Below are positions 233-62,493 of a stretch of 64,000 bases of DNA, piece after piece (the stretch's first letter is position 1; each line of letters starts with the position of its first letter). This DNA is from Minisyncoccota bacterium. Lineage in GTDB: Bacteria; Patescibacteriota; Minisyncoccia; Phycocordibacterales; CALRHW01. Location of the stretch: contig JAXLZT010000001.1 in NCBI GenBank assembly GCA_046350795.1, positions 80,468 through 144,467 on the forward strand, in the 5' to 3' direction. Below the pieces are notes generated by a model that was given only the letters and a program-made list of their open reading frames with translations, did no database searches and was not told the origin of the DNA. A program made the translations under genes and the position numbers.

Positions 233-2173
233 CTAGCCAGCATGTTCTATATCCATTTTATTTTTAAGCTGGATACCGTTTGCGACGATTATCTTTTCAT
301 ACTCTTCCCTTTCTATAGTTTCCACCTCTACTAGACGCAGAGCTATGATATCCAAAAGTTTTCTGTGTTTTGTAATAATATCCTCAGTTTTTTCGTAAGC
401 TTCTTTCATTATTTTAGACACTTCAGCATCTATCATCGCGCTTACCTCTTGGGAATATTCTTTTTCTTCTACACCTCTTCCAAACATAGCTCTACCACCA
501 GAACCCTCCAAAGCTATAGGTCCTATCTTTTCAGACATTCCGTATTTTGTAACCATATCGCGCGCGAGAGCTGTAGACACTTGCAAATCATTTGATGAAC
601 CGGTAGTAAGGTCGCCAAAAATATTTTTTTCTACTACATATCCACCAAGCGAAACCGCAATGTCATCTAGAAATTCATTTTTTGATTGCATCTTTTTGTC
701 ATCGAGAGGAAGCTTTAAAGTGTAGCCAGCCGCACGTCCACGAGAGATAATAGATATTTTGTGCACTGGATCAGCATACGGAAGCACTGAAGCGACGAGA
801 GCATGTCCGGCTTCGTGATACGCAGTGATTTCTTTTTCTTTTTTTGAAAGAATGTGACTTCTTCTCTCAGGACCAAGCATCACTTTTTCAATAGAACGAA
901 TCAGATCGTACTGAGAAACTTGTGTGCGGTTCTCTCGTGCAGCTAGTATTGCACCCTCATTCATTAGAGAGTACAAATCCGCACCAGAAAATCCTGGGGT
1001 ACGCTCTGCTATCACTCCCAAATTTACATCTTCTGCAAATGGTTTTGATTTTGAATGAATAGCCAAAATTTCTTCTCTGTCTTTTCTATCTGGAAAATCT
1101 AGAGTGACGCGTCGATCGAAACGTCCTGGTCGTAGCAGAGCCGGGTCAAGCACATCAGGTCTATTTGTCGCAGCCATTACTATCACCTTTTCATTTGGCT
1201 CAAAGCCGTCCATTTCTACAAGTATTTGATTTAGTGTCTGCTCTCTTTCATCATTTCCCCCACCAGCACCCACTCCTCTGACACGACCCACAGCGTCTAT
1301 TTCATCTACGAAAATTATCGCCGGCGCATTTTGTTTTGCCACCTTAAATAGATCACGCACACGTGAAGCTCCAACACCCACAAACATTTCAACAAACTCT
1401 GAACCAGAAATAGAAAAGAAAGAAACACCCGCTTCACCCGCGACCGCTCGCGCAAGCAAAGTCTTTCCTGTGCCGGGCGCGCCCATTAGCAAAATACCTT
1501 TTGGAATTCTTGCGCCAATATCTAGAAACTTTTTTGGATTCCTCAAAAAGTCGACAATTTCTTTCAATTCTTCTTTTGCTTCTTTTACACCAGCAACATC
1601 TTTAAAAGTCACTCTTTGTTTTTTGTCATCAGGAGAAATCATTCGCGCTTTTGATTGACCAAAAGTGAAAGCTTGTACTCCCGCACCACGCACCTGCCGA
1701 GTCATAAACCACAAAAAGAAAACTACGAAAATAATAGGAACGATTATCGGTGCTAAATTTATAACCCAATACCAAAAACCACTATCCCCCCTTATTTCTA
1801 TTTTCACTTCACTGAGTTTTTCTGGAGTGACCCCATAGTTTGTGAGAGTTTCAGAAAGTGCTGTCGTATCCTCTTTTTTTGCATCCTTTTTTTCTTGACT
1901 CTTGTAAACAATGTCTAAAAATTCCCCTTTTACATAAATATCTGACACAAGACCGGCATTTACATCACGTGCAAGCTCGCTGATAGATATTGTTGTGGAT
2001 TGTTTTTCTGCACCAGACAAAAAAGAATAAATAGTAAGAATGATAAAAAATATTAAAAATGTGCTACCAATATTTAGCCACATTTTATTTTTTTCTGGCA
2101 TACCTTTTTGTGGTACAGTTTTCTTTAAAACAACTTTAAGGTTTTTCTTATTTTTTTGATTAAATAGTTTCAT
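233..2173 (-). CDS. ftsH: ATP-dependent zinc metalloprotease FtsH
   Basis: N-terminal TM segments, AAA Walker [21 protein letters not shown], zinc site HEAGHALV; ORF-track start at 2290 adds 39 non-conserved codons, ATG at 2171-2173 (MKLFNQ) preferred. Confidence 0.93.
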
Positions 2174-2501
2174 ATGGACGATTATACAATAAAAGTTGAA
2201 GGGTCGCCTATGACAGCGACCCCTCCTGGGGACCAACGAGAGTTCGTGTGGCTCATGTATCGGGATTGAGCAACCTGCTAGAAAGCCCACGATTCCTCAT
2301 GCCTGTTGCGTGAGGATTGATCCTCCGTCTCGGAGGAAGTTTCTCCCACAGCCAGCTTCCCGCGTCACATGCCCAGGCAAGGGCAATGCAAAAGACAAGA
2401 ACAAACGTGGGAGGGAAATTGTCATCGAAACTCCCCTCAGCGTAACGTTCGCGACGCATAGCGTGTTCTCCTAAAGATGTGCGTACAGACCCTGCAAGAT
2501 T

Positions 2502-2984
2502 ATGCCAAAAATCCCCCATTTTTGCTATAGTAGGCTTGTGGCAACATTTATCCAAAATAAAAAAGCGCATTTCAACTATGAAATTACAGAAAAGCTCACT
2601 GCCGGTGTAGAGCTTCTTGGCTTTGAAGTAAAATCTGTGCGCGCGGGACAAGGATCTCTCGAAGGCTCATATGTCACCGTCCGTGGTGCAGAGGCATTCA
2701 TCATCGGCATGCATGTGGCACCATTTCAAGCTTTCAATACTCCACGCGATTACGATCCACTACGCAACCGCAAACTGCTTTTAACAAAAAAAGAAATCGC
2801 TACGCTCGGAGAAATAGAAAAAAAGAAGGGTTTGACAATAGTGCCTATTTCGGTGTATAGTATGGGCCGTAAGATCAAAGTGGAGCTAGGTATAGCGCGC
2901 GGAAAGAAAAGTTTTGATAAGCGCGAGACGATAAAAAAGCGAGACTCTGATCGAGACATACGACGCGCGATAAAAGATAGATAG
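2502..2984 (+). CDS. smpB: SsrA-binding protein SmpB
   Basis: KKAHFNYEI...GFEVKSVRAG...RNRKLLL..KKE...KG.TIVP..VY...KIKVELGIARGKK motifs typical of SmpB; true start may be GTG near 2538; located just upstream of tmRNA. Confidence 0.85.
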   Translation: MPKIPHFCYSRLVATFIQNKKAHFNYEITEKLTAGVELLGFEVKSVRAGQGSLEGSYVTVRGAEAFIIGMHVAPFQAFNTPRDYDPLRNRKLLLTKKEIATLGEIEKKKGLTIVPISVYSMGRKIKVELGIARGKKSFDKRETIKKRDSDRDIRRAIKDR

Positions 2985-3022: not shown

Positions 3023-3429
3023 GGGGATGATCGGCCTAGACAGGAGATCAAATCATATATGTGCAAAGTGGAGCTCTGGTGACTCCTAAATCCGCCAGAA
3101 ATTCTAAGTGCAAACGCCTTAGTTACAAAAGCAAAGATCGTCTCTCCATTTTTTGGACAGAAAGATTTTGCTTTCGCTTACGCTTTAGCCTAAGCGACGT
3201 CGCACGAGCCGGCTCCCGTAAAGCTCATTGCGGTGTTATATATTCGGGATAAAGTGTCAGGGCGTTTCGACTGACATTGAAAATAATTGAAACTAGGTAC
3301 TACAAGGTTTTGTTTGTTCCCTACTTGTAGTACTCAAATCGTTCGCAAGAACGAAGAAACATCCTAAACTTTGTAGACTCATATCTGATCATTTCTTGCA
3401 CCCGAGTTCGATTCTCGGCATCTCCACAA
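3023..3429 (+). ncRNA. ssrA: transfer-messenger RNA (tmRNA, one-piece)
   Basis: 5' GGGGAUGA pairs with 3' CAUCUCC to give a 7-bp acceptor stem plus discriminator A (3426); T-arm CCGAG-UUCGAUU-CUCGG at 3401-3419; internal tag ORF 3110-3193 reading ANALVTKAKIVSPFFGQKDFAFAYALA-stop (AYALA ending typical of tmRNA tags); adjacent to smpB. Confidence 0.8.
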
Positions 3430-3552
3430 ATTAGTTAAGAAAATCACGTGATGGAAAATAAGAAAAGAGAGTGGTCTATCGTTGAGACCCAAGATTTTTA
3501 TAAAAATCTGCTAAAAAAAGCGCTAGCGACTATTCCTGAAAAAGGAGCGGCT

Positions 3553-3855
3553 ATGGTACTTGGACCTATGTTTATTATTAGAGCGCCAGAAGAAAACTTC
3601 GCCTTATTTGAAAAAGCACAAAATGAGTTACAAGAAAAAGGTGTTGAGATTTTTAATCAATTACCTTTTGTTGACTATATTATCGGAGACGCACCATTTG
3701 ATTACAAAACTAAATTCGAATTATTTTATAAAGCACTCATAAACTCTGGGAAAATTACGTCCTGCTATTTACTTCCTGATTGGGAAAAGTCAGAAGGCAC
3801 AAGAAGCGAAATCCAGTATTGCAAAGATGCGAAAATACCGGTTTTTGAGATGTAA
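3553..3855 (+). CDS. DUF4406-like (nucleoside 2-deoxyribosyltransferase-like fold) protein
   Basis: MVLGPMFIIRAPEEN...CYLLPDWEKSEGTRSEIQYCKDAKIPVF resembles the DUF4406 pattern (AGPM...LPGWE.SRGA..E); RBS AAAGGAG 5 nt upstream of ATG 3553; ORF-track start 3448 probably too early. Confidence 0.5.
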   Translation: MVLGPMFIIRAPEENFALFEKAQNELQEKGVEIFNQLPFVDYIIGDAPFDYKTKFELFYKALINSGKITSCYLLPDWEKSEGTRSEIQYCKDAKIPVFEM

Positions 3856-3909
3856 GTATTTGTTGACATAATACACAAAAAGTACTATTTTCACTATGAA
3901 ATGCACAAA

Positions 3910-3927
3910 ACCGATAACGTTATCGGT
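3910..3927. promoter_or_regulatory. 18-bp perfect palindrome ACCGATAACGTTATCGGT upstream of high-GC gene (candidate operator)
   Basis: seen directly in sequence; lies between a TTGACA-like hexamer (3872) and the start codon at 3957. Confidence 0.3.
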
Positions 3928-3956
3928 CTGAACGAAGACCTGAAAGGATGGTCCAA

Positions 3957-4421
3957 ATGAAGGAGAACGACCTAAAAATCGGGAGAAAGGTGGAAGTGAC
4001 TTCCCTTTCCAACACACAGGATTGGGGAATTGATGACCAGTACCTCGCGGGGCGCAAGCTGGGGGCCGTAGGCACAGCGCACAAGGCTGCATTCGGCAGG
4101 TGCGCTGGTCTCTGGTACATCAGGGACAACGATGGGCGACTCTCCGTCTACCACGCAGACGAGCTGAGCATCCCTCGCGCGGAGCTCGAGCTAGAGCTTG
4201 CCGAAGCCAAGAACGCCATCGAGGAGTTGATCGCAAACGTGGATAGAGCGACCAATGAGGTGCTGTACCTGACCACTGCCCTGCACCATCTCTCCAATCT
4301 TCGGAAGGGCTGGTGGCCATTTGTCGCCAAGCACAGGATCGATGACATCTTCAAGGTACTCAAGGAGGCCCGCAGACTCTTTGAAGAAAGACTTGAAAAA
4401 AGCCGTGAGAAGCCGCAGTAA
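3957..4421 (+). CDS. hypothetical protein, high-GC, coiled-coil C-terminus
   Basis: long ORF with markedly higher GC and different codon usage than neighbours; second ATG preceded by GAAAGGA. Confidence 0.55.
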   Translation: MKENDLKIGRKVEVTSLSNTQDWGIDDQYLAGRKLGAVGTAHKAAFGRCAGLWYIRDNDGRLSVYHADELSIPRAELELELAEAKNAIEELIANVDRATNEVLYLTTALHHLSNLRKGWWPFVAKHRIDDIFKVLKEARRLFEERLEKSREKPQ

Positions 4422-4542
4422 GCGAGACTCACGGCTTTCTCATTTGTCTAAAGTTTTTTAATGGTAGATAATGTATGAGGCGTTCCCGTATCGCGCATTT
4501 ATGCGCAACAGAAGTTTGGGCAACTTACTGGGAGATCACATG

Positions 4543-4818
4543 GCTACGGTGGGAGACATCGTGGAGGTCGTGGACAAAATCAAGGAGGAAAACAAGAAAC
4601 TCAAGGGGTTGGACTTCACACGAGAGCAGTGTGAACTCATCAGCAAACTTGGAGACATCGTCTTTGAGCACATCGGACTGAGAGATGTTCGACGTCCATT
4701 CGCGCTCACCATTCAGGTCAACGCAGAAGCGGAGAGTGTCTTGCACACTCTCCGGGGGTTCTTGATCCAAACACACACAGAGACAAAGAGAAAGGAGCCT
4801 GAAGGCACACTCGTGTAG
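4543..4818 (+). CDS. hypothetical protein (high-GC)
   Basis: ORF 4471-4818; start ambiguous (MATVGDIV at 4543 plausible); followed by terminator. Confidence 0.4.
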   Translation, partial: ATVGDIVEVVDKIKEENKKLKGLDFTREQCELISKLGDIVFEHIGLRDVRRPFALTIQVNAEAESVLHTLRGFLIQTHTETKRKEPEGTLV

Positions 4819-4838
4819 GCGCAAGCCTGACACACATA

Positions 4839-4880
4839 CCGACCCGTAGGAAAGAAATTTCCCGGGTCGGTTTAATATTT
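4839..4880. terminator. bidirectional terminator hairpin CCGACCCG...CGGGTCGG plus T-run
   Basis: 8-bp GC stem 4839-4846 / 4863-4870 followed by TTTAATATTTT; sits between convergent genes. Confidence 0.55.
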
Positions 4881-5438
4881 TCTAACCACACCTTTTACCA
4901 CAGCAGCGATACGAAAACTTTCTGTGGGATAAATGGGTTTGTAGTTTTTGTTGGCTGGCTCGAGCCAAACTTTACCATTTTTTGATCTGTAAAATTTCAT
5001 AGTCCACCCACCATCTACTTCCGCAATAACTATTTCACCATCGCGTGCATACTCGCGTCTCTCCGCAACCACCATGTCTCCTTCTTGTATACCTTCTTCT
5101 ATCATTGAATCACCCTTTACCTCCAACATGTAGGTTTTGCTCTGATCTTCGATAAGAAGCTCGTCTATACTCATAGTGTCTAGCTGATCCTCTTCTGCAA
5201 CAGAAGGAAAACCAGCTTCCACCAAACCAAGGACAGGGACTTGTCCAAACATATTTTTAGGAATGAGCCGGCCTTGAGAATCTTTTTCTACTATCCCCGC
5301 CTCTACCATTTTATTGATGAGTTTGTAGACAGCATTTTTAGATTTGAAACCAACGAGTGCCATGATTTCTTTGTATCCAGGCATTCGTCGATGCTTTTTA
5401 TAAAATCCTAAAATTTTTTGTTTGTATTGTTCGTTCAT
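4872..5438 (-). CDS. lexA: LexA-family transcriptional repressor (S24 peptidase)
   Basis: N-terminal winged-helix (PGYKEIMALVGFKSKNAVYKLINKM), Ala-Gly cleavage site VEAGFP, catalytic Ser in VKGDSM and Lys in TMKFYRS. Confidence 0.85.
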   Translation of the reverse strand: MNEQYKQKILGFYKKHRRMPGYKEIMALVGFKSKNAVYKLINKMVEAGIVEKDSQGRLIPKNMFGQVPVLGLVEAGFPSVAEEDQLDTMSIDELLIEDQSKTYMLEVKGDSMIEEGIQEGDMVVAERREYARDGEIVIAEVDGGWTMKFYRSKNGKVWLEPANKNYKPIYPTESFRIAAVVKGVVRKY

Positions 5439-5459
5439 TTAAATCTATTGCACTCCTGA

Positions 5460-5654
5460 TTAAAGAAACGACGCAAAGCCAAATGATCTTGTGAGCCAAG
5501 CACTGCGACGCATCTGACTGAGCTGACTGCGAAGACGCTTGTGTGCTTTTGCTTCTTTGGAATATGATTGGCCTTTTATAATTTTTAAATCTATCTGATC
5601 ATTTAGCCTTTTGAGCTCATCGTGTATTGAATATAACATTCTGTTTTTACTCAT
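5460..5654 (-). CDS. small hypothetical protein co-transcribed upstream of lexA
   Basis: 64-aa basic ORF between LexA box and lexA, same strand. Confidence 0.35.
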   Translation of the reverse strand: MSKNRMLYSIHDELKRLNDQIDLKIIKGQSYSKEAKAHKRLRSQLSQMRRSAWLTRSFGFASFL

Positions 5655-5697
5655 GTTTTTTATGTTATTAAATAATTAATCTTTATATAGAGTATAG

Positions 5698-5713
5698 GTG
5701 AACTAGGGTTCAC
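5698..5713. promoter_or_regulatory. LexA (SOS) box GTGAAC-TAGG-GTTCAC
   Basis: perfect GAAC-N4-GTTC palindrome (Cheo-box type) about 45-60 bp upstream of the lexA operon start and in the divergent promoter of the 5867 gene. Confidence 0.55.
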
Positions 5714-5866
5714 CAGTCAATGTGGACAAGATTCTAGAAAATAAAAAATGGGTGCGGTCAACTCTACCCTATTTAAATTACGAGTGTATACTTTTATACG
5801 GCGTTCACAAACATTGTGCTGAGAAACAGACCCGGTCTTGCCACTTACAAAAGGAATGGTGACACA

Positions 5867-6205
5867 ATGTCCACCGAAGAAACACCGGAATACGATTTCG
5901 AGGGCGTAGCCCACAGGGTGTACCCAGGAACAAGGACTCGCAACCCCAACATTGCACCGATCCACGTCAGGGCATTCGGTACGTGCGGAGGAATCCAGCA
6001 TCCCATTCACGCTCAGCTGTTGGGTCTCGAAAGACCACAGTCGGCCACTGACCAACGCTCTCAGCCCTCTCTCTTTGGGGATGATGAAGAAAAGAGGTGC
6101 TGTGGCAATCCATCTTGTGCAGGATCTTGTCCGCACAAGAGAGAGGGTGCCGAGATCTCCGCTGACACCGACAGCGTCAACGTCACCTCTTCGGTGAAGC
6201 ACTAG
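5867..6205 (+). CDS. hypothetical Cys-rich protein (high-GC)
   Basis: ORF 5816-6205; MSTEETPEY start likely; CCGNPSCAGSCPH motif; followed by strong terminator. Confidence 0.45.
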   Translation: MSTEETPEYDFEGVAHRVYPGTRTRNPNIAPIHVRAFGTCGGIQHPIHAQLLGLERPQSATDQRSQPSLFGDDEEKRCCGNPSCAGSCPHKREGAEISADTDSVNVTSSVKH

Positions 6206-6237
6206 CCCACATCGCGACCAACGTGGTCGCGGTACAA

Positions 6238-6283
6238 GCCCAACCCCTATGGACGGGGGTTGGGCACTTTTTTTATTTTTTTT
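6238..6283 (+). terminator. rho-independent terminator GCCCAACCCC-tatggac-GGGGGTTGGGC plus T9
   Basis: seen in sequence. Confidence 0.65.
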
Positions 6284-6299
6284 GATGTAAAATAAGTAA

Positions 6300-7376
6300 A
6301 TGGAAAAAAACACTCCACAATTTTTCACCAGAACAGAAGAAGCTTGGGATGCAATGTTGGCCGAATGCTCAAAAGCAGAGCACTCTATAGATATAGAACA
6401 ATACATCTTTACAAATGATACCGTCGGTAAACGTTTCCTAGAGACATTAATACGAAAACAAAAAGAAGGAGTGAGAGTGCGTATGATTTGCGACACAGTG
6501 GGAAGTTATTTTTTTTATAATTCACTCACCCCAGATGAACTAAGAGCAATAGGAATACAAATACAATTTTTTAATATCATAAGTCCGTGGAGGTTGCATA
6601 ATATTTTTTCTTGGTATTTTAGAGATCACAGAAAAATACTCGTTATAGACGGAAAAACAGCTATCGTCGGTGGATCTGGAATACGAGAAGATATGCGTTT
6701 TTGGCGTGACACAAATGTGAAAGTGACGGGTGCGATAGCAGAAGAAATGCAAGAAATATTTAATGAAATGTGGGTGCTTGCTAAAGAAAAAAATATATTT
6801 AAAAGAATAAACAGGTCTAGAAGAAGAAAAAAACTGCAACACATCGTTACCAATGCCCCCTACCTACGTAGACGATTTTTATATCGCAGATTTCTAAAAG
6901 AAATACGTTATTCAAAAAAATATATTTTACTAACAACGCCGTATTTTGTACCAAATCAAAAATTACTTAATGCTTTATGCTACGCTGTGCGACGTGGAGT
7001 GGATGTGCGAGTTATAGTACCAAAAACATCTGACACCATCTTAGTAAACCGCGCATCTCATAGTTTTTTCTATGATCTACTAATGGGAGGGGTAAAAATA
7101 TACCAATACCCACATTATTTTATACACACAAAGACAGCCGTAATAGACGACACATGGTCTACGATAGGTAGTTTTAATTTTGATAATCTCAGTTTCTTTT
7201 ATAATCACGAAGCAAACATAGTTTCCAACAACAAATCGTTTATTTTCCCTCTAAAAAGACACTTTGAATATGATATGGCCAAATCTGAGATGGTCACTCT
7301 AGAGAATTGGAAAAAAAGGCCTATTTTATGGAAATTTCGTGAATTTATGGTTACCCCAATAAGGCGTTTTCTATAA
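6300..7376 (+). CDS. phospholipase D-family protein (cardiolipin synthase-like)
   Basis: two HKD motifs: HRKILVIDGKTAIVGGSGI and HTKTAVIDDTWSTIGSFNFD. Confidence 0.8.
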   Translation: MEKNTPQFFTRTEEAWDAMLAECSKAEHSIDIEQYIFTNDTVGKRFLETLIRKQKEGVRVRMICDTVGSYFFYNSLTPDELRAIGIQIQFFNIISPWRLHNIFSWYFRDHRKILVIDGKTAIVGGSGIREDMRFWRDTNVKVTGAIAEEMQEIFNEMWVLAKEKNIFKRINRSRRRKKLQHIVTNAPYLRRRFLYRRFLKEIRYSKKYILLTTPYFVPNQKLLNALCYAVRRGVDVRVIVPKTSDTILVNRASHSFFYDLLMGGVKIYQYPHYFIHTKTAVIDDTWSTIGSFNFDNLSFFYNHEANIVSNNKSFIFPLKRHFEYDMAKSEMVTLENWKKRPILWKFREFMVTPIRRFL

Positions 7377-34473: not shown

Positions 34474-35073
34474 ATGAAACCATACACAGAACAAAAATTT
34501 AATATTCCAGAGCTTACAGGTATTTCTAAGAAAAATATCGAAGAGCATCTCAAGCTTTACTCAGGGTATGTAAAAAATACCAACCTTATAGCAGAAAAAA
34601 TAGCCGATCTGCAAAAAGACAGCGAAAAAAATGCTTACATGATCGGCGAGCTTCAGAGGCGTTTTGGTTTTGAATTTGATGGAATGAGAAATCATGAATA
34701 TTATTTTAAAAGCTTAGAGGGCGGACACTCAGAGATCAACGCAGGTGACCTAAAGAGTATGATTGAGTCCCAGTTTGGTAGCTTTGACGCTTGGCTTGCT
34801 ACATTTACAGCTATGGCAATGACTCGAGGAGTGGGCTGGGCAATGCTTTACTACGATCATCACGCTGGACAGCTCGTACATGCTTGGGTAGAAGAACAAC
34901 ACCTCGGACATCTTACCGGTCTACAGCCAGTCCTCGCTCTCGATATGTGGGAACATGCATATGTATATGACTATGCAACATCTGAAAAGAAAAAATACAT
35001 CGAGGCTTTTTTCAAAAATCTAAATTGGACTGCAATCGAAAATAATTTTACGGCGGCAAAGAAACTCGGCTAG
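34474..35073 (+). CDS. sodA: Fe/Mn superoxide dismutase
   Basis: HH..H N-terminal metal ligand region and DMWEHAYVYDY C-terminal motif. Confidence 0.9.
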   Translation: MKPYTEQKFNIPELTGISKKNIEEHLKLYSGYVKNTNLIAEKIADLQKDSEKNAYMIGELQRRFGFEFDGMRNHEYYFKSLEGGHSEINAGDLKSMIESQFGSFDAWLATFTAMAMTRGVGWAMLYYDHHAGQLVHAWVEEQHLGHLTGLQPVLALDMWEHAYVYDYATSEKKKYIEAFFKNLNWTAIENNFTAAKKLG

Positions 35074-36547
35074 AACGACCCCTTACCTTTCTCCATACGT
35101 AGACGACAGCAAAAACAAAATAGAAAGAAAAAACTAGCCACACGGACACTTGTGGCAAGTTTACATACGCAAAAGGCAAAGCTGAAAATATTTCTACAAC
35201 AGAAAGCATGTATTGCAGTAACAAATAAGCAAGATACCCCACCACAACAGAGAAAAAGCTACTCACGAAACCCAATATTCCTGCCAAAAAGCTCACAGCC
35301 ATAGCCATAGGCACCACAATTAACACTAAAATATTTGTAACAAGGGAAACTATAGACACCATGCCTGTCATGTATACAAGCATTGGCAAAAGAAAAACTT
35401 GAGTCGCTAAAGTCGAAGCAATAGTAGCGCGAATACCAAGTCTTTCTGGCAAAAACCATAAATACCTTTCAAAAAATGGCGAGCATACCACCAAAGCAAA
35501 TGTAGCCATACAAGAAAGCTGAAAAGATGGATCCGAAAGTAAAATAAATGGATTATGAAAGACCATCACACACGCGGCCAGAAAAAGTGCGCGCATGATG
35601 TCATACGTCCTGCCTGTCGATCTACCCACAAGTGCAATACAGGCCATGACAGAAGCACGTACCACTGTAGCACCACTACCAGTGATGAGAGCAAAAGCGA
35701 AAATACCAAATATTCCACCAGCTACACCAGCATACTTTGGCAGAAAAGAAAATATTTTTATTATAAAATCAGCGACTATAGTGACGTTGTATCCAGACAA
35801 TACCACTACATGTATGAGTCCGGACTGTCTGAATGCATTTGTAAGCTCTTTACCCAAAGAATGTTTTGCGCCAAGCAAAATGCCACCAGCTAGAGATGAG
35901 TGCGGCGCAGGTATTGCACTTTCTAAATTTTCTATAAAAGACTTCTTAGCAAACAGAAGTATACTTTTTATAAAATGACCTTGGCTGTGCGCTATGAGTG
36001 AGATCTCAGGCCGATACATTTGATAACCGATACCATCTTTTGCTAGATATGACACATAATCAAACTCTCTTCCTGTATCAGTTTCAAAATTTTCAGGCAA
36101 CTCAAGAGTGCCGGACACTAGCACTGAGTCTCCGTATGAAAAATCCTCACCCAAAGCATCATGAGCTACAGTAACCAGTATTTTCTTTTTAAAATTTTCA
36201 GCATAAGCAAATCTTTTTGGCAAAAAAGTAAGACGTGTATTATTTTCACGGATATCTGGCTCATCTACTATGAGCCCATCAATCTCTACATTTTCTCCTA
36301 CAAAATCTTCCAATGAATCATCTGAAAAATTATAAATAGCGTACGAATTCCGTAATATCCCTATGCTGGCCGAAAATACAAATACTGCACATAAAAAAAT
36401 CACAATAACCTTACGAAACAAAATAAAAACAAACAAAGATAAAACAAAAATCAATAAAGATAAGTAAAAACTCAATGGTACCAAAGAATCTATAGCCACA
36501 CCGCACAAAAAACCTGCCAAAACTGTGTATAAAATATAACCGCGCAT
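35048..36547 (-). CDS. comEC: ComEC/Rec2 DNA internalisation channel (DUF4131 + competence domain), lacks MBL domain
   Basis: multi-TM, GLIHVVVLSGYNVTIV competence-domain motif; 3' end overlaps sodA convergently by 26 nt. Confidence 0.8.
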   Translation of the reverse strand: MRGYILYTVLAGFLCGVAIDSLVPLSFYLSLLIFVLSLFVFILFRKVIVIFLCAVFVFSASIGILRNSYAIYNFSDDSLEDFVGENVEIDGLIVDEPDIRENNTRLTFLPKRFAYAENFKKKILVTVAHDALGEDFSYGDSVLVSGTLELPENFETDTGREFDYVSYLAKDGIGYQMYRPEISLIAHSQGHFIKSILLFAKKSFIENLESAIPAPHSSLAGGILLGAKHSLGKELTNAFRQSGLIHVVVLSGYNVTIVADFIIKIFSFLPKYAGVAGGIFGIFAFALITGSGATVVRASVMACIALVGRSTGRTYDIMRALFLAACVMVFHNPFILLSDPSFQLSCMATFALVVCSPFFERYLWFLPERLGIRATIASTLATQVFLLPMLVYMTGMVSIVSLVTNILVLIVVPMAMAVSFLAGILGFVSSFFSVVVGYLAYLLLQYMLSVVEIFSALPFAYVNLPQVSVWLVFSFYFVFAVVYVWRKVRGRSSRVSLPP

Positions 36548-39468: not shown

Positions 39469-39586
39469 ATAAAAGACGTATTAGACCAGACTTGACTTTT
39501 CTATAAAAAATGTTAGATTTTGCTGGTTCGTGGAAACAATTCACGACAAGCACATTCACACTTCAAATCTCACAGGAGACTGGACA

Positions 39587-40673
39587 CATGAAGAAGGTTC
39601 TTTTCGTCGCACAAGATGCGGCGCCAAGCAGGGCATTCCAGAGGTTTGCCCCTGCTTTGACTGAGGCTGGTTTTGGCGTTGAGCTCATTGTCGCTGACGG
39701 CAAGACCTTCCCGACAATCGACGGAGGCATGTCTCGAAAGGTGGGGTCTGCGGACCTACTTGTCATTGGCATGTCCTCACGACCTGAGTACGCAACGGAC
39801 GAATTGTTTGCCGCCAAGCAAGCAATCAAGTCTGGGGTGCCACTCGCCTGCTACGGTGACGTGCCAGGCTGTCATGTGCGTCACGCTTTCTGGGGGAATG
39901 ACATCTCCCGAGAGCTTTCGCTCTACCTCGGCTACAACCAAGCAGAGGAGGACGGCGTGCGGAAGTCTTTCCCAAACGCTCGTTTCCGTGCGATCGGCAA
40001 CCCACTTCGTGAGGAGATGGCATTTGCGCGATATACTCGCGAAGAGGTGCGTCTCCGTCTGGGTGTCACCCCAGATGACAAGGTCATTCTGGTGGGCGGT
40101 GGCAAGAGTCCATACAGCAACATGGTTCGTATCGGGCTCGTGCTCGAAACGATGAACATGTTGGATGGATTCCGCAAGACGCCCATCAAGGTGTTGCTCT
40201 CTCTGCATCCGGGAGACAAGGCGCCGGTCTCCAACTACGACGAAATCGTCAAGGAGAGTCCGGTGCCATTCCGGATTGCTGAGTCCATCAAGGGAAAGTT
40301 CGAGACCTCCGACATGATCGGGGGCGCCGATCTGGTCTTTTGCGGACTCACTGGTTCGACAGCCATCGAAGCCGCCTACAAGCGGATTCCGGTCATTCAG
40401 ACCGGTGGTGAGATCGAGCTTGTGAAGCTCTTCAAGGAAACCGGATCAAGGACTCCTGAAGCAGTGGCCGTTGGAGCATCATTGTTCTGCAACGGAGGAA
40501 ACTGCGGGCTCGATCTCGTAAGAGCAATGGATCTGATCTGGGGCACTGGTGTGGGAGCAAGCCTCATGAACGACCAAGCCTCCGCCTACCCGATCCCACA
40601 AAGGGTCGGGCAGGCAACGGAAAACGCTGTCAACGTAATCCGTGAATTCTTGGAAGTTCCGGCCATGGCCTGA
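39587..40673 (+). CDS. high-GC hypothetical protein, two Rossmann-like halves (GT-B glycosyltransferase / UDP-sugar epimerase-like)
   Basis: RBS AGGAGA before ATG 39587; KVLFVAQDAAPSRAFQRFAPAL N-terminus, KVILVGGGKSP and DLVFCGLTGSTAIEAAYKRIPVI in second half; about 60% GC. Confidence 0.5.
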
Positions 40674-42686: not shown

Positions 42687-44162
42687 TTATTCTATCTCTT
42701 CCCAAGACAGTATCGTATATTGATCAGATGTAAGAGGAAAACTAGGCGGTGGACCATATAGAAGATTGGCATCATATATTATCTGTCTTGTGTCATATCC
42801 GGTCCCATCTGTATAAGCAAAACCATAACGATTGTAGGTAGCCAACATTCCATACAGAGTAATAATGCTTCTTGTATACCAATTATTTCCACCAGATTTA
42901 CAGCTAGTACTGTAATAATACCTTCCCACTCTGCCGTTTTGTGCCACCAAAGCAGCATCTATACGTAGATCGTTCTCGCTCACCATTCCCACGTTTATAT
43001 CTTTCTGTGCAATAAGAGAAAGAACGTCTTGTCCATCATAGTTTGTATATTTTAAATCATTATTTACTGTAATACTCGTGCGTGTAGACGAGTTATCTGG
43101 AAACTTACCCGAAGCAATGGTGAGTCTAGCTGTATTTATAGTGCCCTCTACCCACAAATTGTCCTCAACAAAAATAATTCCGTTGGTTGGAAAGTTCTGA
43201 TTTGATTGCAAAAGAGTCGTACCATTGACACTCCATGTTCCCCATCCAGTTTGATTTTGAGAATTGGAACAACTACCGGGTGGAGACACCAGTGTGTTTA
43301 CTTTGTATAAATCAAACTTATCATTATTTTTTAAAACTAGTTTATATCCAAGGGCACCAGATCCAGCAAAATATCTTCCAGAAGACTGAGCGCTGGATTT
43401 CATCTGGGCTAAATCAGAAGTAAGACCAGTAAAATCAACTGCTGGCACAGGAAACTGTCTGCCGGCCTCAAAAACATCTGCTCTAGTGGGCACGGGACTA
43501 GTAGGCGGTGCCTCATTTGGACGAAAAGCATCATTTATTCCAGAAGACGGTGGTGCGTTAACATGTGTATGTACAGCAAACTCATTATTACCACTATGAT
43601 CTGGGTCGTCGTACTCAGAAAGAGCACTTGAAATAGTGTTATGTGCCAAACCATCAAAACGAATTCCACCGTTTGAATGAATTGGTCCAAATACTTCTGT
43701 ACCTTCTCCAAAACGCATATCTCCGTTTGAAACAAAAGCAAATTTTGCAAAAGAAGCTATAGCCAACTGTGATTCTATAGTACGAGAGGCGCTGGGATCA
43801 GCGAGTACATTACCGGTAGACCTAATCTTTACAATAGTTGTGCCAGTAGGCGGTGGTGTTATGGTTAAAACAAAATTTCCAACTTCCACACCGTCTTTAT
43901 CATAAAAAGAATGAGTATATGGTCCAGGCTGACCAGTACCATCTTGATAGTCTTGTGGTGCATGAGCTAAATGCCACCTATAATAATCTATCCCTGCTTC
44001 TGCTATTTGTATTGCTTGCTCTCTGTATACAGAGCGTTTTGATAATTTTATATTTGAAGCGCCCCACATAATAAGACCACCCATTACAACCACAGCAATA
44101 GAAGAAAAAACGAGCGCTTGGATTATTAGAAAACCACTTTTTTTGTTTCGAGAAGCTATCAT
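42687..44162 (-). CDS. type IV pilus-associated protein with PilX-like N-terminal anchor (putative minor/tip pilin)
   Basis: N-terminal KKSGFLIIQALVFSSIAVVVMGG hydrophobic helix, large Gly/Asn/Thr-rich beta domain; in pilin cluster. Confidence 0.55.
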   Translation of the reverse strand: MIASRNKKSGFLIIQALVFSSIAVVVMGGLIMWGASNIKLSKRSVYREQAIQIAEAGIDYYRWHLAHAPQDYQDGTGQPGPYTHSFYDKDGVEVGNFVLTITPPPTGTTIVKIRSTGNVLADPSASRTIESQLAIASFAKFAFVSNGDMRFGEGTEVFGPIHSNGGIRFDGLAHNTISSALSEYDDPDHSGNNEFAVHTHVNAPPSSGINDAFRPNEAPPTSPVPTRADVFEAGRQFPVPAVDFTGLTSDLAQMKSSAQSSGRYFAGSGALGYKLVLKNNDKFDLYKVNTLVSPPGSCSNSQNQTGWGTWSVNGTTLLQSNQNFPTNGIIFVEDNLWVEGTINTARLTIASGKFPDNSSTRTSITVNNDLKYTNYDGQDVLSLIAQKDINVGMVSENDLRIDAALVAQNGRVGRYYYSTSCKSGGNNWYTRSIITLYGMLATYNRYGFAYTDGTGYDTRQIIYDANLLYGPPPSFPLTSDQYTILSWEEIE

Positions 44163-46567: not shown

Positions 46568-47788
46568 TTAAATTGCGTCGGCAAGAGAATACATCGGTCC
46601 GAGCATAGATATCGCAAAAAATCCAACACCGATACCAATAACGACCATCAAAAATGGTTCTATAATGGTCGACATGTCTTTTGTTTTTTGATCAACCTCT
46701 TCTTCATAAAATTGAGCTACGTTTGCAAGCATTTCAGATAATTTTCCTGTCTCCTCTCCAATGCTCACCATCTCCCCCACAAACACCGGGTAAAGTTTTT
46801 CGTGTTTTAAGAAAATATTTGAAACCGGATCTCCTTTTTCTATATTTATCTCAGCCTCTTTTAACACAGCTTTATAATAAGAATTTTGAATAACATCTTG
46901 TGTAATACGTACAGCCACAAGCACATCCACACCAGAAGAAAGTAGAGAAGAAAAAGTACGTGCAGTACGAGCGGAGTTGAGATCTTTTACAATTCCAGAA
47001 ATCACGGGTACGTGAAGCACAAAAGTATCTAAAGCCCTCTTGCCTCTTTTTGTCTTTATAGAAAAATAAAAAACCAAACCAACAGTAATAAGGATTAATA
47101 GATTTATAATAATATGATTTTTCAAAAAGTCTGACAGCCAAATAACCATTTTTGTAGAAAAAGGTAAGGAAACATTCAAATCTTTAAAGGTTGATGTAAG
47201 TGTCGGCACCAAATATATAAGCATCAAAACACCTATAGTAATCATAATAGACAAAATAATTGCTGGATATATGAGCGCTCCACGAATTTTTTTTGTAAGC
47301 TGATAAGCTTTTTCAAGCTGAGCAGACACCACCTTAAGAGACTGAGTGACACTACCGCTTTCCTCTCCAGATTTAACCATTGATACAAAGAGTGAAGAAA
47401 AAACATCCAAATGCTTTGCCATTGCCTCACTTAGAGCACTTCCCTTGCCGATATCAACATTGAGTTCACCTATTACTTTTTTAAATTTCTTATTTTTTGT
47501 CTGTCGCTCCATTACAGAAAGCGCACGCGCCAAAGGCAATCCAGCTTCTATCATTGTGCCGAGGTTTTTTGCAAACATTATCTTGTCTATTGTCTTAACC
47601 CTACCCAGTAGATTGCCAAAATGAATATTTTTAACAAAACCCACTCCATCTTTTTGCTCCTCAGCAAAAGTAACGGTGTCCCCGTCTAGACGAATCTGCT
47701 GATATAGAGCAGATTTACTTTCTGCTTCTTTTACACCACTATATTTTTCACCCGTCTTTTTTACCGCTTTGAAGTTAAATTTTGGCAT
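46568..47788 (-). CDS. pilC: type IV pilus assembly platform protein PilC (GspF family)
   Basis: two T2SS-F repeats, three TM segments. Confidence 0.88.
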   Translation of the reverse strand: MPKFNFKAVKKTGEKYSGVKEAESKSALYQQIRLDGDTVTFAEEQKDGVGFVKNIHFGNLLGRVKTIDKIMFAKNLGTMIEAGLPLARALSVMERQTKNKKFKKVIGELNVDIGKGSALSEAMAKHLDVFSSLFVSMVKSGEESGSVTQSLKVVSAQLEKAYQLTKKIRGALIYPAIILSIMITIGVLMLIYLVPTLTSTFKDLNVSLPFSTKMVIWLSDFLKNHIIINLLILITVGLVFYFSIKTKRGKRALDTFVLHVPVISGIVKDLNSARTARTFSSLLSSGVDVLVAVRITQDVIQNSYYKAVLKEAEINIEKGDPVSNIFLKHEKLYPVFVGEMVSIGEETGKLSEMLANVAQFYEEEVDQKTKDMSTIIEPFLMVVIGIGVGFFAISMLGPMYSLADAI

Positions 47789-47815: not shown

Positions 47816-49570
47816 TTATTCTGATACCACACGCAATATTTCTTCTATTGTGGTCTGACCCTGAACAGCTTTGAAAATGCCGTCTTCTATCATAGACAAC
47901 ATACCTTCGGCTTTTGCTTGTTTCTCTATTTCTTTATCAGTCTTACCCTGCATCACAAGCTCTTTTATAGCTGGAGACACCTTGAGCACTTCGTATATAC
48001 CCACTCGGCCACTAAAAGCTTGCTCAGGGTCTACACCGGCTTTTGGTCTATAAAAAGGTATTTTGTCCCAAGACACTTTTCCTTCTACCACCTTTTCTTC
48101 TTTCAAAAACTTTAAGACACGATCAAGGTCAACGGTTTTTTTCAAAGTTTCTATCTCGGCGTCAGTCAAAAAGTATTTTTCTTTTTTATCAGTAAGTTTA
48201 CGAACGAGACGCTGTGCAATAACTACGTTTAATGTAGAGACGATTAAAAACGGCTCGACTTTCATATCTATGAGACGAGGTATCGCACCTGCAGCTGAGT
48301 TGGTGTGCAGTGTGGAAAGCACGAGATGACCTGTAAGTGATGCGTTGACCGCAAGAGAAGCTGTCTCACCATCACGGATCTCTCCCACCATGATAATGTC
48401 TGGGTCCTGACGCACTAGTGTGCGTAGACCGTTACTAAAGGTCAATCCTATCTCAGACTTTACTTGCGTTTGGTTGATACGATTCATTTGATACTCTACC
48501 GGATCCTCTATAGTAGAAATATTTACGTCAGGCGTATTTAAAATATCAAGCATTGTATATAGAGAAGTGGTCTTTCCAGATCCTGTCGGTCCAGTAGTGA
48601 GTATGAGTCCAGTCGTCTGATTCATTGCCTTGTGTATTTGCTCTAGAGCCTCACCGTGATAACCGAGTACTTCGAGAGTAAATCCAGAAGCTGATTCGCG
48701 AAGCAAACGCATTACAGTCTTTTCTCCGTAGTAAATAGGCAAAGTAGAAACACGGAAAGAAACTTTTTCTCCGTTCATGTCTATTTTAAAGCGACCGTCT
48801 TGTGGTAAACGCTTTTCATCTAGCTTTAGATTTGCGAGCACTTTTATGCGTGCGGTGATACTAGTAGAAATATTTTTAGGTAATGTCATAGCGTCATGAA
48901 GCATACCGTCGATACGGTATCTGACTATCACCTGATTTTCGAGGGGCTCGATGTGAATATCAGAAGCGTTTTGAATAATTGCATGTTTTAAAAGAGTATC
49001 GACTATGCGCACCACAGGCATATCCTCAGCAAGCTTCTTGAGGTCGCTCTCTGACACATCTTCGTTTTCACCTCCATCGGCTACAGCTTTTATGGACACG
49101 GATTCTTTTTGAATCAAATCTCCAAATTCTGCCTTAAGACTTTTTTGATATTGCAAAAGCACACTCTTAATAGATTCGCTATCAGTCAAACGAGGCAATA
49201 TTTTCAATCCAACTTTCTTTTTTACAAAATCAATAGCGGTCAGATTGGCAATATCAAGCATTGCCACCTCGAGTCCCCCAGGTACTTTTTTAAAACCAAC
49301 TATATTGTGATTGCGAGCAATAGGTTCTGGAATAAGAGCGAGCACATCAAAATCTATCTTTATACCCTTTAAATCAACAAAAGGAATACCTAAAATATTA
49401 GCCTGAATCTTGCGCAATTCATCCTCACCTATCTTACCCTTGCTTACAAGTACTTCTCCCACATCAACATCCTTTTCCTCTGCCTCTTTTTCTGCAGAAG
49501 CAAAATCGGCTTTTGATACAAGACCAGAGTCCAAGATGAAATCTTTAAATTGTTTTTCTTCAATGTGCAT
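47816..49570 (-). CDS. pilB: type IV pilus assembly ATPase PilB (GspE family)
   Basis: N-terminal GSPII_E_N domain, Walker A TGPTGSGKTTSLY, Asp box, His box. Confidence 0.92.
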   Translation of the reverse strand: MHIEEKQFKDFILDSGLVSKADFASAEKEAEEKDVDVGEVLVSKGKIGEDELRKIQANILGIPFVDLKGIKIDFDVLALIPEPIARNHNIVGFKKVPGGLEVAMLDIANLTAIDFVKKKVGLKILPRLTDSESIKSVLLQYQKSLKAEFGDLIQKESVSIKAVADGGENEDVSESDLKKLAEDMPVVRIVDTLLKHAIIQNASDIHIEPLENQVIVRYRIDGMLHDAMTLPKNISTSITARIKVLANLKLDEKRLPQDGRFKIDMNGEKVSFRVSTLPIYYGEKTVMRLLRESASGFTLEVLGYHGEALEQIHKAMNQTTGLILTTGPTGSGKTTSLYTMLDILNTPDVNISTIEDPVEYQMNRINQTQVKSEIGLTFSNGLRTLVRQDPDIIMVGEIRDGETASLAVNASLTGHLVLSTLHTNSAAGAIPRLIDMKVEPFLIVSTLNVVIAQRLVRKLTDKKEKYFLTDAEIETLKKTVDLDRVLKFLKEEKVVEGKVSWDKIPFYRPKAGVDPEQAFSGRVGIYEVLKVSPAIKELVMQGKTDKEIEKQAKAEGMLSMIEDGIFKAVQGQTTIEEILRVVSE

Positions 49571-49656: not shown

Positions 49657-50463
49657 TTAATTTTTAACACAATACAACAAAGCAATGTATGGATTTAACA
49701 TGTTCATTGCCTCAGCGTTTCCAGTAGCACCTATACTAGGTGAGGACGTATTTGGATTATCCCAAGGAATGTCTACGTTTTGTTGACAAGTGCCCCCAGA
49801 ACAATAATTTTTTCCTGTATTTCCAAAAGCGTTTACAAGATAATTTCCATTATTATTTATGGTGTGATTATGAGATGCCATCTGTTCTAAAGTCTGTACA
49901 ATAGCCTCCTGACCACCCTTTTGTCCTAAAGTATGATTTGTACTAGCAGTGGATCCACTTCCTGTATTAGAGTTTCCTACTCCCAGTATTACTCTACCTG
50001 CACCATCAGTAAAAGGACTCCATCCAGATGGGCATGAAGATAGGTTGAAAGACATGACCGCACCAGAAGGAGCATTTATCACAACACCGCCACTATTTGT
50101 CGGCCACTGTGTAATACAAGCATCTCCTATACAAAAACCTGTGCGACTTTTTGAGTATCCCACCACATCAAGCATTTGAGTTGGCGCATCTGTACCAATA
50201 CCAACCTTGCCAGCATAAGCAGAAAAACCGAGATCATCTTGCAACACAGCGGCGCCCACAGTAAGTCCTCCTTGTTTTATCTGACCGACTGTACCTAAAT
50301 TTATAGGCGGTCTACATCCAGGCGTAAAGTTGTTAGCACAATCTGGCGGTGGAGATGAAGGCGCACTCCAACCAAAAACAGTTACAGAACCAAAGTAAAA
50401 TACGCAGGTTAAAAGAACAATCTTAATATTTTTTATAATTTCTTTTTTATTATTCATATTCAT
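49657..50463 (-). CDS. secreted phage tail-collar/MdpB-like domain protein, paralog 1
   Basis: signal peptide, conserved CPSGWSPFTDGAGRVILGVG...LGQKGGQEAIVQ...H-x-H...NPYIALLYCVKN resembling tail-collar / microcystin-dependent protein domains. Confidence 0.65.
   Translation of the reverse strand: MNMNNKKEIIKNIKIVLLTCVFYFGSVTVFGWSAPSSPPPDCANNFTPGCRPPINLGTVGQIKQGGLTVGAAVLQDDLGFSAYAGKVGIGTDAPTQMLDVVGYSKSRTGFCIGDACITQWPTNSGGVVINAPSGAVMSFNLSSCPSGWSPFTDGAGRVILGVGNSNTGSGSTASTNHTLGQKGGQEAIVQTLEQMASHNHTINNNGNYLVNAFGNTGKNYCSGGTCQQNVDIPWDNPNTSSPSIGATGNAEAMNMLNPYIALLYCVKN
49895..50051. repeat. 157-bp block 100% identical to 50711-50867 and 51530-51686 (within three paralogous genes)
   Basis: direct comparison of sequence text. 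Confidence 0.9.
50132..50184. repeat. 53-bp block identical to 50939-50991 and 51770-51822
   Basis: direct comparison; encodes QMLDVVGYSKSRTGFC on minus strand. Confidence 0.85.
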
Positions 50464-50469
50464 AATCTT

Positions 50470-51267
50470 CTAAGGTAAATCTTTAGAACAATAAAGCAAT
50501 GTGACATATGGATCCGTAATATTCATTGGACTGCCACCCAAATTGTTATTAACGGTTGGGGTAAAAAAATCTCCAGTAGTAATAATAGAATTTGAACTAA
50601 CACAAGATTGATTGGTGCAAAAATTTTTTTGTTGTTTACCAAGATAGTTCACCCAAATAGGATAGTTGCCGGTCGCGGCATGATTGTGCGGAGGAAGTTG
50701 AGACGCTTCTTGTACAATAGCCTCCTGACCACCCTTTTGTCCTAAAGTATGATTTGTACTAGCAGTGGATCCACTTCCTGTATTAGAGTTTCCTACTCCC
50801 AGTATTACTCTACCTGCACCATCAGTAAAAGGACTCCATCCAGATGGGCATGAAGATAGGTTGAAAGCCGCAACAATAGCGCCAGAAGGTATACTTGATC
50901 CACCAGCATTCCAGTTTTGTATACAACTATCATTGATGCAAAAACCTGTGCGACTTTTTGAGTATCCCACCACATCAAGCATTTGAGTTGGTTCAATAGT
51001 GCCTATACCGGCCTTTCCTTTCAAGACCAAAAGGCTTGGTTGGCTTGCATCCAAACCATAACCAACAGTAAGGCCTCCCTGTTTTATTTGACCGTCACCC
51101 CCCAAGTGTAATGGCGCATCACATCCAGGATAATTTGTAGGGCAATTGGTTGGACTGCCTGGTGGAGGGCTCCATGCTCCATAAACAGCATTTACACCAA
51201 CACTCAAAAAAAATGCAATTACTACTATCTTAAAATTTTGTAATATTTTTTCTTTTAGAAGATTCAT
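50470..51267 (-). CDS. secreted phage tail-collar/MdpB-like domain protein, paralog 2
   Basis: same conserved core as 49657-50463, divergent N- and C-terminal flanks. Confidence 0.65.
   Translation of the reverse strand: MNLLKEKILQNFKIVVIAFFLSVGVNAVYGAWSPPPGSPTNCPTNYPGCDAPLHLGGDGQIKQGGLTVGYGLDASQPSLLVLKGKAGIGTIEPTQMLDVVGYSKSRTGFCINDSCIQNWNAGGSSIPSGAIVAAFNLSSCPSGWSPFTDGAGRVILGVGNSNTGSGSTASTNHTLGQKGGQEAIVQEASQLPPHNHAATGNYPIWVNYLGKQQKNFCTNQSCVSSNSIITTGDFFTPTVNNNLGGSPMNITDPYVTLLYCSKDLP
50711..50867. repeat. 157-bp identical block, copy 2
   Basis: direct comparison. Confidence 0.9.
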
Positions 51268-51279
51268 GGCGTATTTAAA

Positions 51280-52107: not shown

Positions 52108-52116
52108 TTTTTAAAA

Positions 52117-60723: not shown

Positions 60724-61293
60724 ATGTTAATACCAACAGTTATTGAAAAAACAAATTTTGGGGAGCGAGCATATGACATTTATTCTCGCTTACTAAAAGA
60801 GCGCATTATCTTTTTAGGAGGACCGATAGACGATCATATGGCAAATATAGTCATTGCTCAGCTACTTTTCCTAGAATCAGAAGACCCTAAAAAAGATATC
60901 CAACTATACATCAACTCTCCAGGTGGTTCTGTCACTGCTACCCTAGCAATGCTAGATACAATGAATCACATAAAACCAGACATTTCTACTGTATGCGTAG
61001 GTATTGCGGCGTCTGGTGCAGCTATTTTGCTAGCAGGGGGTAAAAAAGGAAAGCGACTTGCTCTACCAAATGCAGAAGTGATGATTCATCAACCTTGGGG
61101 TGGAGCGCAAGGACAAGCCACAGACATAGAAATCACAGCACGGCAAATACTAAAGACTCGATCAAAATTAAATAAAATTCTCGCAGACACTACAGGTAAG
61201 CCACTAGAACAAATAGAGAAAGATGTGGAACGTGACTACTTTATGGACGCAACAGAAGCAAAAAAGTACGGAATTATCGACAAAGTTTTGTAA
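60724..61293 (+). CDS. clpP: ATP-dependent Clp protease proteolytic subunit
   Basis: catalytic Ser in GIAASGAA, His in MIHQP, RIIFLGG. Confidence 0.94.
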
Positions 61294-62185: not shown

Positions 62186-62212
62186 AATAATTTTAATAAT
62201 TTTTTGATTATT

Positions 62213-62488: not shown

Positions 62489-62493
62489 GTTTT

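Follow-up and report, generated by a model that had tools for sequence, protein, structure and literature searches.

In Escherichia coli, the transfer-messenger RNA (tmRNA) SsrA encodes a tag of 10 codons with the archetypal ending YALAA, and ClpXP together with SspB is the main route by which tagged proteins are degraded, with Lon and FtsH acting as well. Mycoplasma species have no ClpXP, ClpAP or Tsp (PMC8403727, PMC3985003); the M. pneumoniae tag is 27 residues long (PMC8403727), and Lon is the main reader of this longer mycoplasmal tag, which works as a degradation signal (PMC8403727; PMC3985003). The terminal residues of Mycoplasma tags are AFA (PMC3985003). Here we analyze the ssrA locus in a stretch of 64,000 nucleotides (the window) from a Minisyncoccota bacterium of the Patescibacteriota (assembly GCA_046350795.1, contig JAXLZT010000001.1, positions 80,468–144,467 of the forward strand). 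Sequence comparison indicates, with a probability that we put at about 0.85 for the gene, its structure and its reading frame, that this locus is a functional, canonical one-piece tmRNA gene, and its tag of 27 codons appears to belong to an extended-tag family kept across the clade. The novelty is modest and lies in this clade-wide conservation, as long tags were known before and the RNA itself is canonical. Our searches of one literature library returned nothing relevant on tmRNA tags or protease repertoires in Patescibacteria or the candidate phyla radiation (CPR).

The window tmRNA resembles E. coli SsrA and the Rfam tmRNA family RF00023 in most respects. Its tRNA-like domain has a T-arm, the discriminator A and a G3:U pair; a first pseudoknot (PK1) precedes a GCA (Ala) resume codon by about 10 nt; the stop codon falls within helix 5; three more pseudoknots are present; and SmpB is encoded as its partner. 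It differs in its 27-codon tag, in a C-terminal tail that reads FAFAYALA, in the lack of an encoded CCA, and, by comparison with the Rfam consensus, in a 39-nt insertion inside the tag frame and an extra hairpin in the fourth pseudoknot (PK4). The likeness to the tmRNAs of Mycoplasma and Mesoplasma is of another kind and comprises a similar tag length, a small-genome host and an aromatic, Ala-rich C-terminal part; moreover, many relatives of the window tag end in FAFA, which recalls the AFA of Mycoplasma. The lineages are unrelated, however, the tags are alike in length and tail only, and clpP is present in the window; we therefore do not count this tmRNA as part of the Mycoplasma system. The closest counterparts are the tmRNAs of other Paceibacteria and Patescibacteria (for example loci L001, L003/L004, L014 and L024 of our comparison set), which have the same architecture, tags of the form AN.[IV]V.KAKS.VSP[YF]FG.[NK]DFAFAYA.A, a shared ftsH/smpB/ssrA neighborhood and, mostly, no encoded CCA.

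Identity and structure of the tmRNA

ARAGORN and Rfam each find one tmRNA in the window. ARAGORN calls it at 3023–3427 on the forward strand, with its coding part at gene positions 88–171 (window 3110–3193). RF00023 matches 3023–3429 on the same strand over the whole model (1–374 of 374) with a score of 117.8 bits (E 2.3e-45; gathering score 47 bits), and this is the sole Rfam match across the 64 kb at gathering thresholds. A preceding sequence-only reading of this DNA had proposed a one-piece tmRNA beside smpB on the strength of a canonical acceptor stem, T-arm and discriminator; both programs bear this out, smpB ends 38 nt before ssrA begins, and the three tRNA-like elements can be read directly in the sequence (Table 1).

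Table 1 Coordinates of the tmRNA gene, its structural elements and associated protein genes in the window
Feature	Position	Strand	Description	Evidence
ssrA	3023..3429	+	One-piece tmRNA gene	ARAGORN, Rfam RF00023, RNAalifold
Acceptor stem, 5′ strand	3023..3029	+	GGGGAUG; pairs with CAUCUCC 3419–3425; includes G3 of G3:U	
Pseudoknot 1	3070..3099	+	GGAG 3070–3073/CUCC 3083–3086; UCUGGUG 3075–3081/CGCCAGA 3093–3099	Rfam alignment, pseudoknot search
Spacer before resume codon	3100..3109	+	AAUUCUAAGU; 10 nt, single-stranded	Pseudoknot search, Rfam
Tag frame	3110..3193	+	27 codons, GCA...GCC, encoding ANALVTKAKIVSPFFGQKDFAFAYALA; stop UAA 3191–3193	ARAGORN; frame open and homologous in all relatives
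Helix 5	3174..3197	+	UCGCUUA 3174–3180/UAAGCGA 3191–3197; stop codon in 3′ strand	Rfam, RNAalifold, sequence
Pseudoknot 2	about 3196–3249	+		Rfam alignment, pseudoknot search, covarying stems
Pseudoknot 3	3253–3293	+		Rfam alignment, pseudoknot search, covarying stems
Pseudoknot 4	3296–3361	+		Rfam alignment, pseudoknot search, covarying stems
Extra hairpin in pseudoknot 4	3340–3353	+		Rfam alignment
T-arm	3402..3418	+	CCGAG 3402–3406/CTCGG 3414–3418, 5 bp; loop TTCGATT	
Acceptor stem, 3′ strand	3419..3425	+	CATCTCC	Sequence
Discriminator	3426	+	A, followed by C-A-A	
smpB	2541..2984	+	GTG start, 147 aa	Pfam SmpB 2.3e-50, full length; NCBIfam equivalogs including TIGR00086 above cut-offs
ftsH	233..2176	−	Divergent from smpB–ssrA; start codon uncertain	NCBIfam FtsH equivalog, 778 bits (cut-off 600)
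clpP	60724..61293	+		Pfam CLP_protease 1.3e-83; TIGR00493 319.7 bits (cut-off 308.6)

For comparison, we fetched 80 loci by SmpB similarity from GTDB species representatives; almost all are labeled as metagenome-assembled genomes of Paceibacteria, Parcubacteria, Patescibacteria, Taylorbacteria, Zambryskibacteria or Nomurabacteria, and the closest SmpB, that of L001, is 91% identical to the window protein. These relatives, together with near-identical public contigs described below, place the window in a Paceibacteria (CPR) genome with a G+C content of about 40%. An RNAalifold consensus for the window tmRNA and 19 others of its clade contains 64 pairs, 50 of which are kept through substitution of both partners in one or more of the sequences. 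The pairs span the acceptor stem, the T-arm (whose stem shows compensatory changes among relatives), helix 2, one stem of PK1, helix 5 (the pairs at alignment columns 161–164/200–203) and stems of pseudoknots 2–4, and the G3:U pair is constant in 20/20 sequences. Each of the four pseudoknots can be traced in the window sequence. By contrast with these paired regions, the 5′ part of the reading frame has no predicted conserved pairs among the 20 sequences, as expected of an mRNA-like segment. The mRNA-like domain of tmRNAs spans 48–126 nt (PMC1168896), a range that includes that of the window. Thus, the covariance model matches at full length, the pseudoknots and the tRNA-like domain fold, and the sequence-level defining features that we tested all place the gene in the one-piece tmRNA family.

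Position of the resume codon

ARAGORN returns a tag, ANALVTKAKIVSPFFGQKDFAFAYALA, identical to the 27-codon frame ending in AYALA that had been proposed from the sequence. The same reading had allowed that the true resume codon might lie further 3′, giving a short tag such as GQKDFAFAYALA. Five kinds of sequence evidence lead us instead to place the predicted resume codon at GCA 3110: the alignment to the covariance model, the spacing from PK1, the open frame, the pattern of codon conservation and the presence of homologous upstream segments in relatives that appear to have shorter tags.

First, in the Rfam alignment, GCA 3110 falls on the resume codon of the consensus, and UCUAAGU, which precedes it, falls on AAUAAuU; in most relatives, the five nucleotides at −5 to −1 read UAAGU, UAACU or UAAAU. 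Second, PK1 lies at a nearly fixed distance. Because MAFFT misaligned subgroups with one another across PK1, each of 32 relatives was searched separately for a pseudoknot and compared with shuffled sequences, which gave a mean score of 27.0 versus 9.9 in the shuffles. The second PK1 stem covaries among these relatives (UCUGGUG/CGCCAGA, GAAAGG/CCUUUC, UGCAAG/CUUGCG, UGGAAUU/AAUUCCA), and the distance from PK1 to the resume codon is 10–11 nt in 26/32; in the window, where PK1 ends at 3099, it is 10 nt.

Third, the frame is free of stop codons along its whole length. Across 28 unique clade sequences, it contains none before the terminal stop, whereas the +1 and +2 frames contain 30 and 35; for the N-terminal segment before the Ser-Pro dipeptide alone, the corresponding counts are 0, 17 and 20. 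Fourth, in a codon alignment of 27 unique tags, positions 1 and 2 of the S, P and F codons of the internal motif S-P-[Y/F]-F are constant, and position 3 has entropies of 1.64, 1.38 and 0.76 bits, with synonymous variants that include TCT/TCA/TCC/TCG and CCA/CCG/CCT. Across N-terminal columns 2–13, mean entropy is 0.90, 0.69 and 1.18 bits at codon positions 1, 2 and 3, respectively, and this weighting toward the third position is the pattern expected of coding sequence.

A later start, at the Gly codon of GQKDFAFAYALA or at a frame beginning ASPFF, would make the upstream codons an untranslated spacer and the real tag a short one. Short tags are the commonest bacterial type, and ARAGORN itself picks shorter tags in four relatives (L010, L017, L020 and L028). 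In each of these, however, the frame is open further upstream, where it encodes a homologous AN..V.KAKS segment that begins at a GCN codon 10–11 nt past PK1, and we take the short calls to be an artefact of the program's heuristics, which on this evidence misplace the resume codon in 4/49 tmRNAs of the fetched loci. The GGA codon in the window lies 45 nt from PK1 and has no UAAGU-type motif upstream of it. Moreover, the S-P-[Y/F]-F codons, with their constant first two positions and synonymous third positions, would fall in the supposedly untranslated part, as would the segment in which stops are confined to the other two frames, and the consensus resume codon of the Rfam model falls elsewhere, on GCA 3110. 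On these grounds, a resume codon further 3′ seems very improbable.

A family of extended tags in the lineage

The window tag was first described as unusually long. This holds by comparison with E. coli-type tags but not within the lineage, for which 27 residues appear to be typical. In 46 patescibacterial tmRNAs, tags range from 10 to 30 residues with a median of 24.5, and 39 have at least 20 residues; in the clade defined by SP[YF][FV], the median is 27. Three non-patescibacterial tmRNAs in the fetched set have tags of 9–10 residues. A comparison with CPR tags, suggested as a check by the sequence-only reading, therefore has two outcomes: the tag has homologs in these genomes, and its length is the norm for them. 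We conclude from the aligned frames that the 27-codon tag is not an artefact of annotation and represents an extended-tag family of 18–30 residues.

The consensus of this family is approximately A-[NK]-x-[IVL]-V-x-[KR]-[AV]-K-S-[VI]-V-S-P-[YF]-F-[GA]-x-[NK]-D-F-A-F-A-[YF]-A-x-A, and a sister group has tags of the form K-S-P-Y-A-x-x-F-x-F-A-F-A. The most conserved parts are the internal S-P-[Y/F]-F and the F-A-F-A near the C-terminus. The window tag differs from that of L001 at only three residues; it departs from the majority of relatives by Q-K in place of A/V-N and by I-V in place of S-[VI]-V. By contrast with the internal motif, the extreme C-terminus is loose. Twelve forms occur among the final tripeptides (ALA in eight cases, and VRA, ASA, ARA, YVA, AFA, ANA, AAA, LVA, YAA, AIA and VPA), with nine identities at the penultimate position (L, R, S, V, A, F, N, I and P). 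Each of the 28 tags that ARAGORN calls in the SP[YF][FV] clade ends in Ala, a count to be read with the knowledge that ARAGORN favors such endings.

Rfam recovers a further 11 tmRNAs (66–110 bits; L005, L011, L025, L027, L041, L043, L044, L046, L048, L051 and L058) that ARAGORN does not report, with tags of 20–28 residues. The tag of L005 ends in FAFAYVS and that of L011 in FAFAYVRT, and these Ser and Thr endings probably explain why both were missed. Because at least 11 tmRNAs are absent from its calls and 4/49 resume codons are misplaced, catalogs of tags in this lineage that were built with ARAGORN alone are incomplete.

Maturation of the 3′ end and transcription

The gene ends in CUCC-A-C-A-A, and thus carries ACAA in place of ACCA. 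The proposal that CCA is added after transcription agrees with the relatives: CCA is encoded in 5/46 patescibacterial tmRNA genes (L003, L004, L006, L024 and L040) and is missing in 41/46, such that an unencoded CCA is the rule in the clade. Post-transcriptional addition of CCA is ordinary in many bacteria. The mature RNA probably consists of the encoded sequence up to A3426 followed by the added CCA; it would measure about 407 nt and finish in CUCCACCA, its C and A being non-templated.

A candidate for the enzyme lies outside the window. Four contigs of the same species (L081–L084), which are 99.3–100% identical to the 3′ end of the window, extend beyond it and carry a class-II nucleotidyltransferase gene about 8 kb past clpP (18305–19927 in L081). 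The protein has PolyA_pol, PolyA_pol_RNAbd, HD and tRNA_NucTran2_2 domains. Its best NCBIfam matches are models for CCA tRNA nucleotidyltransferases, and it is probably a CCA-adding enzyme, which supports post-transcriptional completion of the tmRNA; its scores of 283.2 and 290.5 fall below the respective curated cut-offs of 290 and 438.8, and this counts against the assignment. The same contigs encode RNase Y, HU and adenylate kinase in the region past the window end.

Transcription of ssrA from its own promoter and transcription jointly with smpB are both possible. A near-consensus sigma-70-like promoter, TTGACA-18-TATAGT (11/12), lies at 2832–2861 inside smpB, about 160 nt before ssrA, and a second promoter-like site (9/12) lies directly before smpB at 2502–2531. 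No terminator-like site was seen directly past the ssrA 3′ end; the nearest candidate, a hairpin at 3473–3489, is inside the next open reading frame (ORF).

How the tag may act

The structural features, the reading frame and selection on the peptide come from the comparisons presented here, and the working steps that follow draw on established tmRNA biology. The precursor would be trimmed and its 3′ end completed by the CCA-adding enzyme, after which alanyl-tRNA synthetase would charge the tmRNA by way of the G3:U pair. The SmpB–tmRNA complex would then enter stalled ribosomes, and translation would resume at GCA 3110, 10 nt past PK1. As the first alanine of a tag comes from the charged tmRNA, the stalled protein would gain Ala plus the 27 encoded residues ANALVTKAKIVSPFFGQKDFAFAYALA, 28 in all, before termination at UAA 3191–3193 inside helix 5. 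Finally, the tagged product would be degraded.

What distinguishes the window tag is the part that precedes its C-terminus. Since the S-P-[Y/F]-F codons change synonymously, selection at this motif appears to act on the peptide and not on the RNA. We propose that the tag works as a long, multipartite degron whose internal motif and aromatic tail both aid recognition by an AAA+ protease or its adaptor, and we give this proposal about even odds. A variable C-terminus combined with a conserved internal motif argues against strict recognition of the C-terminus as in E. coli. More broadly, tags throughout this group of ultra-small, uncultured bacteria are long and combine a conserved internal motif with a loose C-terminus, which suggests a way of reading ssrA tags in protein quality control that differs from that of E. 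coli.

Two proteases are candidates for reading the tag. The first is FtsH, which we infer from its position: ftsH lies within 3 kb of smpB in 44/80 loci, upstream and divergent as in the window in 38 and downstream in 6. The ftsH–smpB–ssrA neighborhood recurs among loci L001–L063, a conserved arrangement that may reflect function or only inherited gene order. The second candidate is a ClpP-based protease with some unfoldase, as clpP of the window is bona fide (Table 1). Neither clpX nor lon turned up in the sequence scanned, which comprised about 45 ORFs of the window (against Pfam) and the 10 kb that follow clpP. The gene for trigger factor (57974–59026) lies near clpP with two genes between, and no clpX follows clpP; tig-clpP-clpX is a common arrangement.

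A more specific version of the proposal is that the Paceibacteria tag family is a multipartite degron that arose independently and whose internal motif tethers the tagged protein to a protease or adaptor other than ClpX/SspB, such as FtsH. This version is speculative, and we consider it rather doubtful; if it were true, the family would be a CPR counterpart to the co-evolution of tag and Lon in Mycoplasma. The Mycoplasma precedent also suggested that loss of Clp proteases might have caused the long tag, a notion that is weakened by the presence of clpP.

Several observations weigh against reading the whole extension as a degradation signal. Variation is greater among the 12 N-terminal residues than in the SPYF core, and tag lengths in the clade run from 18 to 30 residues, so part of the extension may be mere spacer. 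Nucleotide conservation of the F-A-F-A-Y codons partly coincides with the 5′ strand of helix 5, and RNA structure may therefore account for part of the conservation at FAFAYA. The presence of a bona fide clpP means that the Mycoplasma analogy, in which loss of Clp goes with a switch to Lon, is not simply transferable. Finally, for this organism all statements about function are drawn from sequence.

Some of these observations would also fit a simpler account, in which the full tag is translated but only its last few residues matter, as in ClpX-like recognition, with the extension and SPYF being neutral or serving at the RNA level, for example as a spacer or an RNA-binding site. The presence of clpP, the partial overlap of C-terminal nucleotide conservation with helix 5, the varying length of the N-terminal part and the terminal Ala of the 28/28 ARAGORN-called clade tags are all compatible with it, the last with the caveats already given: the program prefers such endings, and L005 and L011 end in Ser and Thr. 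These two endings, together with the highly variable penultimate residue, fit poorly with strict recognition of a terminal LAA. Moreover, S-P-[Y/F]-F is kept as amino acids through synonymous codon changes, a pattern that helix 5 cannot explain, and the 5′ part of the frame, in which RNAalifold predicts no conserved pairing, gives little sign of a role in the RNA. We regard this account as unlikely, and prefer a tag that is recognized at more than its C-terminus.

Surroundings of ssrA

The region directly 3′ of ssrA sets this locus apart from those of other Paceibacteria. Between ssrA and lexA, 1.44 kb (3430–4871) encode a DUF4406 protein (3448–3855) and two orphan ORFs (3948–4421 and 4471–4818). 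This segment is missing from L003/L004, where lexA abuts ssrA, and other genes follow ssrA in L001. None of its three ORFs has a homolog in the 80 loci, and G+C is somewhat raised in 4001–6000 (0.46). The segment resembles a variable region beside the tmRNA gene.

As tmRNA genes are known integration sites and the segment is an insertion relative to close relatives, it might be asked whether the locus is a decaying, non-functional or mobile-element-borne copy instead of a working ssrA. We searched the borders of 3430–4871 for att-like repeats, including a directly repeated tmRNA 3′ end, and found short, chance-level repeats only and no integrase; the use of ssrA as an integration site was set aside. 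Against a decaying copy stand the full-length covariance-model match, the preservation of all helices by compensatory changes across relatives, an intact and adjoining smpB within a conserved ftsH–smpB–ssrA order, the absence of a duplicated 3′ fragment or att-like repeat in that search, and the fact that this is the only tmRNA that ARAGORN or Rfam finds in the window. A defunct or mobile copy is thus extremely improbable, and a working ssrA is strongly preferred.

Further downstream, a leader at 5686–5810 is about 80% identical to its counterpart in L003/L004 and contains the perfect palindrome GGTGAAC-TAGG-GTTCACC (5697–5714), which has the form GAAC-N4-GTTC and which we take to be a LexA box of the Gram-positive type. 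The palindrome lies between the orf5460–lexA operon on the reverse strand and a GC-rich ORF (5867–6205) for a Cys-rich protein of 112 aa, which lacks homologs in a large protein database; a strong terminator (6236–6285) comes after the ORF. In L003/L004, non-homologous small ORFs occupy the same position. One possibility is that the interval 5655–6300 holds a divergent promoter under SOS control together with a variable small protein induced by SOS. We also considered a structured RNA at 5650–6300, where G+C is high and ORFs are few, and rejected it: the best Rfam match had an E of 0.1 and the folding z-score was −3.1, and the stretch is made up of a conserved leader and non-homologous ORFs.

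No tRNA gene occurs in the 64-kb window, which starts just past ftsH and hence leaves outside it the position at which many relatives (L008, L009, L011, L012, L015–L017, L028, L031, L033, L038–L040, L042 and L055) carry a tRNA-Ile gene with anticodon UAU, 2–3 kb upstream of smpB and beyond ftsH. In most bacteria, AUA is decoded by a CAU tRNA that carries a lysidine modification. Elsewhere in the window, several large ORFs have no Pfam match (39510–40673, 42687–44162, 49657–54740 and 61310–63924; up to 762 aa, or 805 aa in the gene calls of L081), and some of these flank genes for T2SSE (47816–49570) and T2SSF (46568–47788), proteins of type IV pili or secretion, and for the competence protein ComEC (35048–36547).

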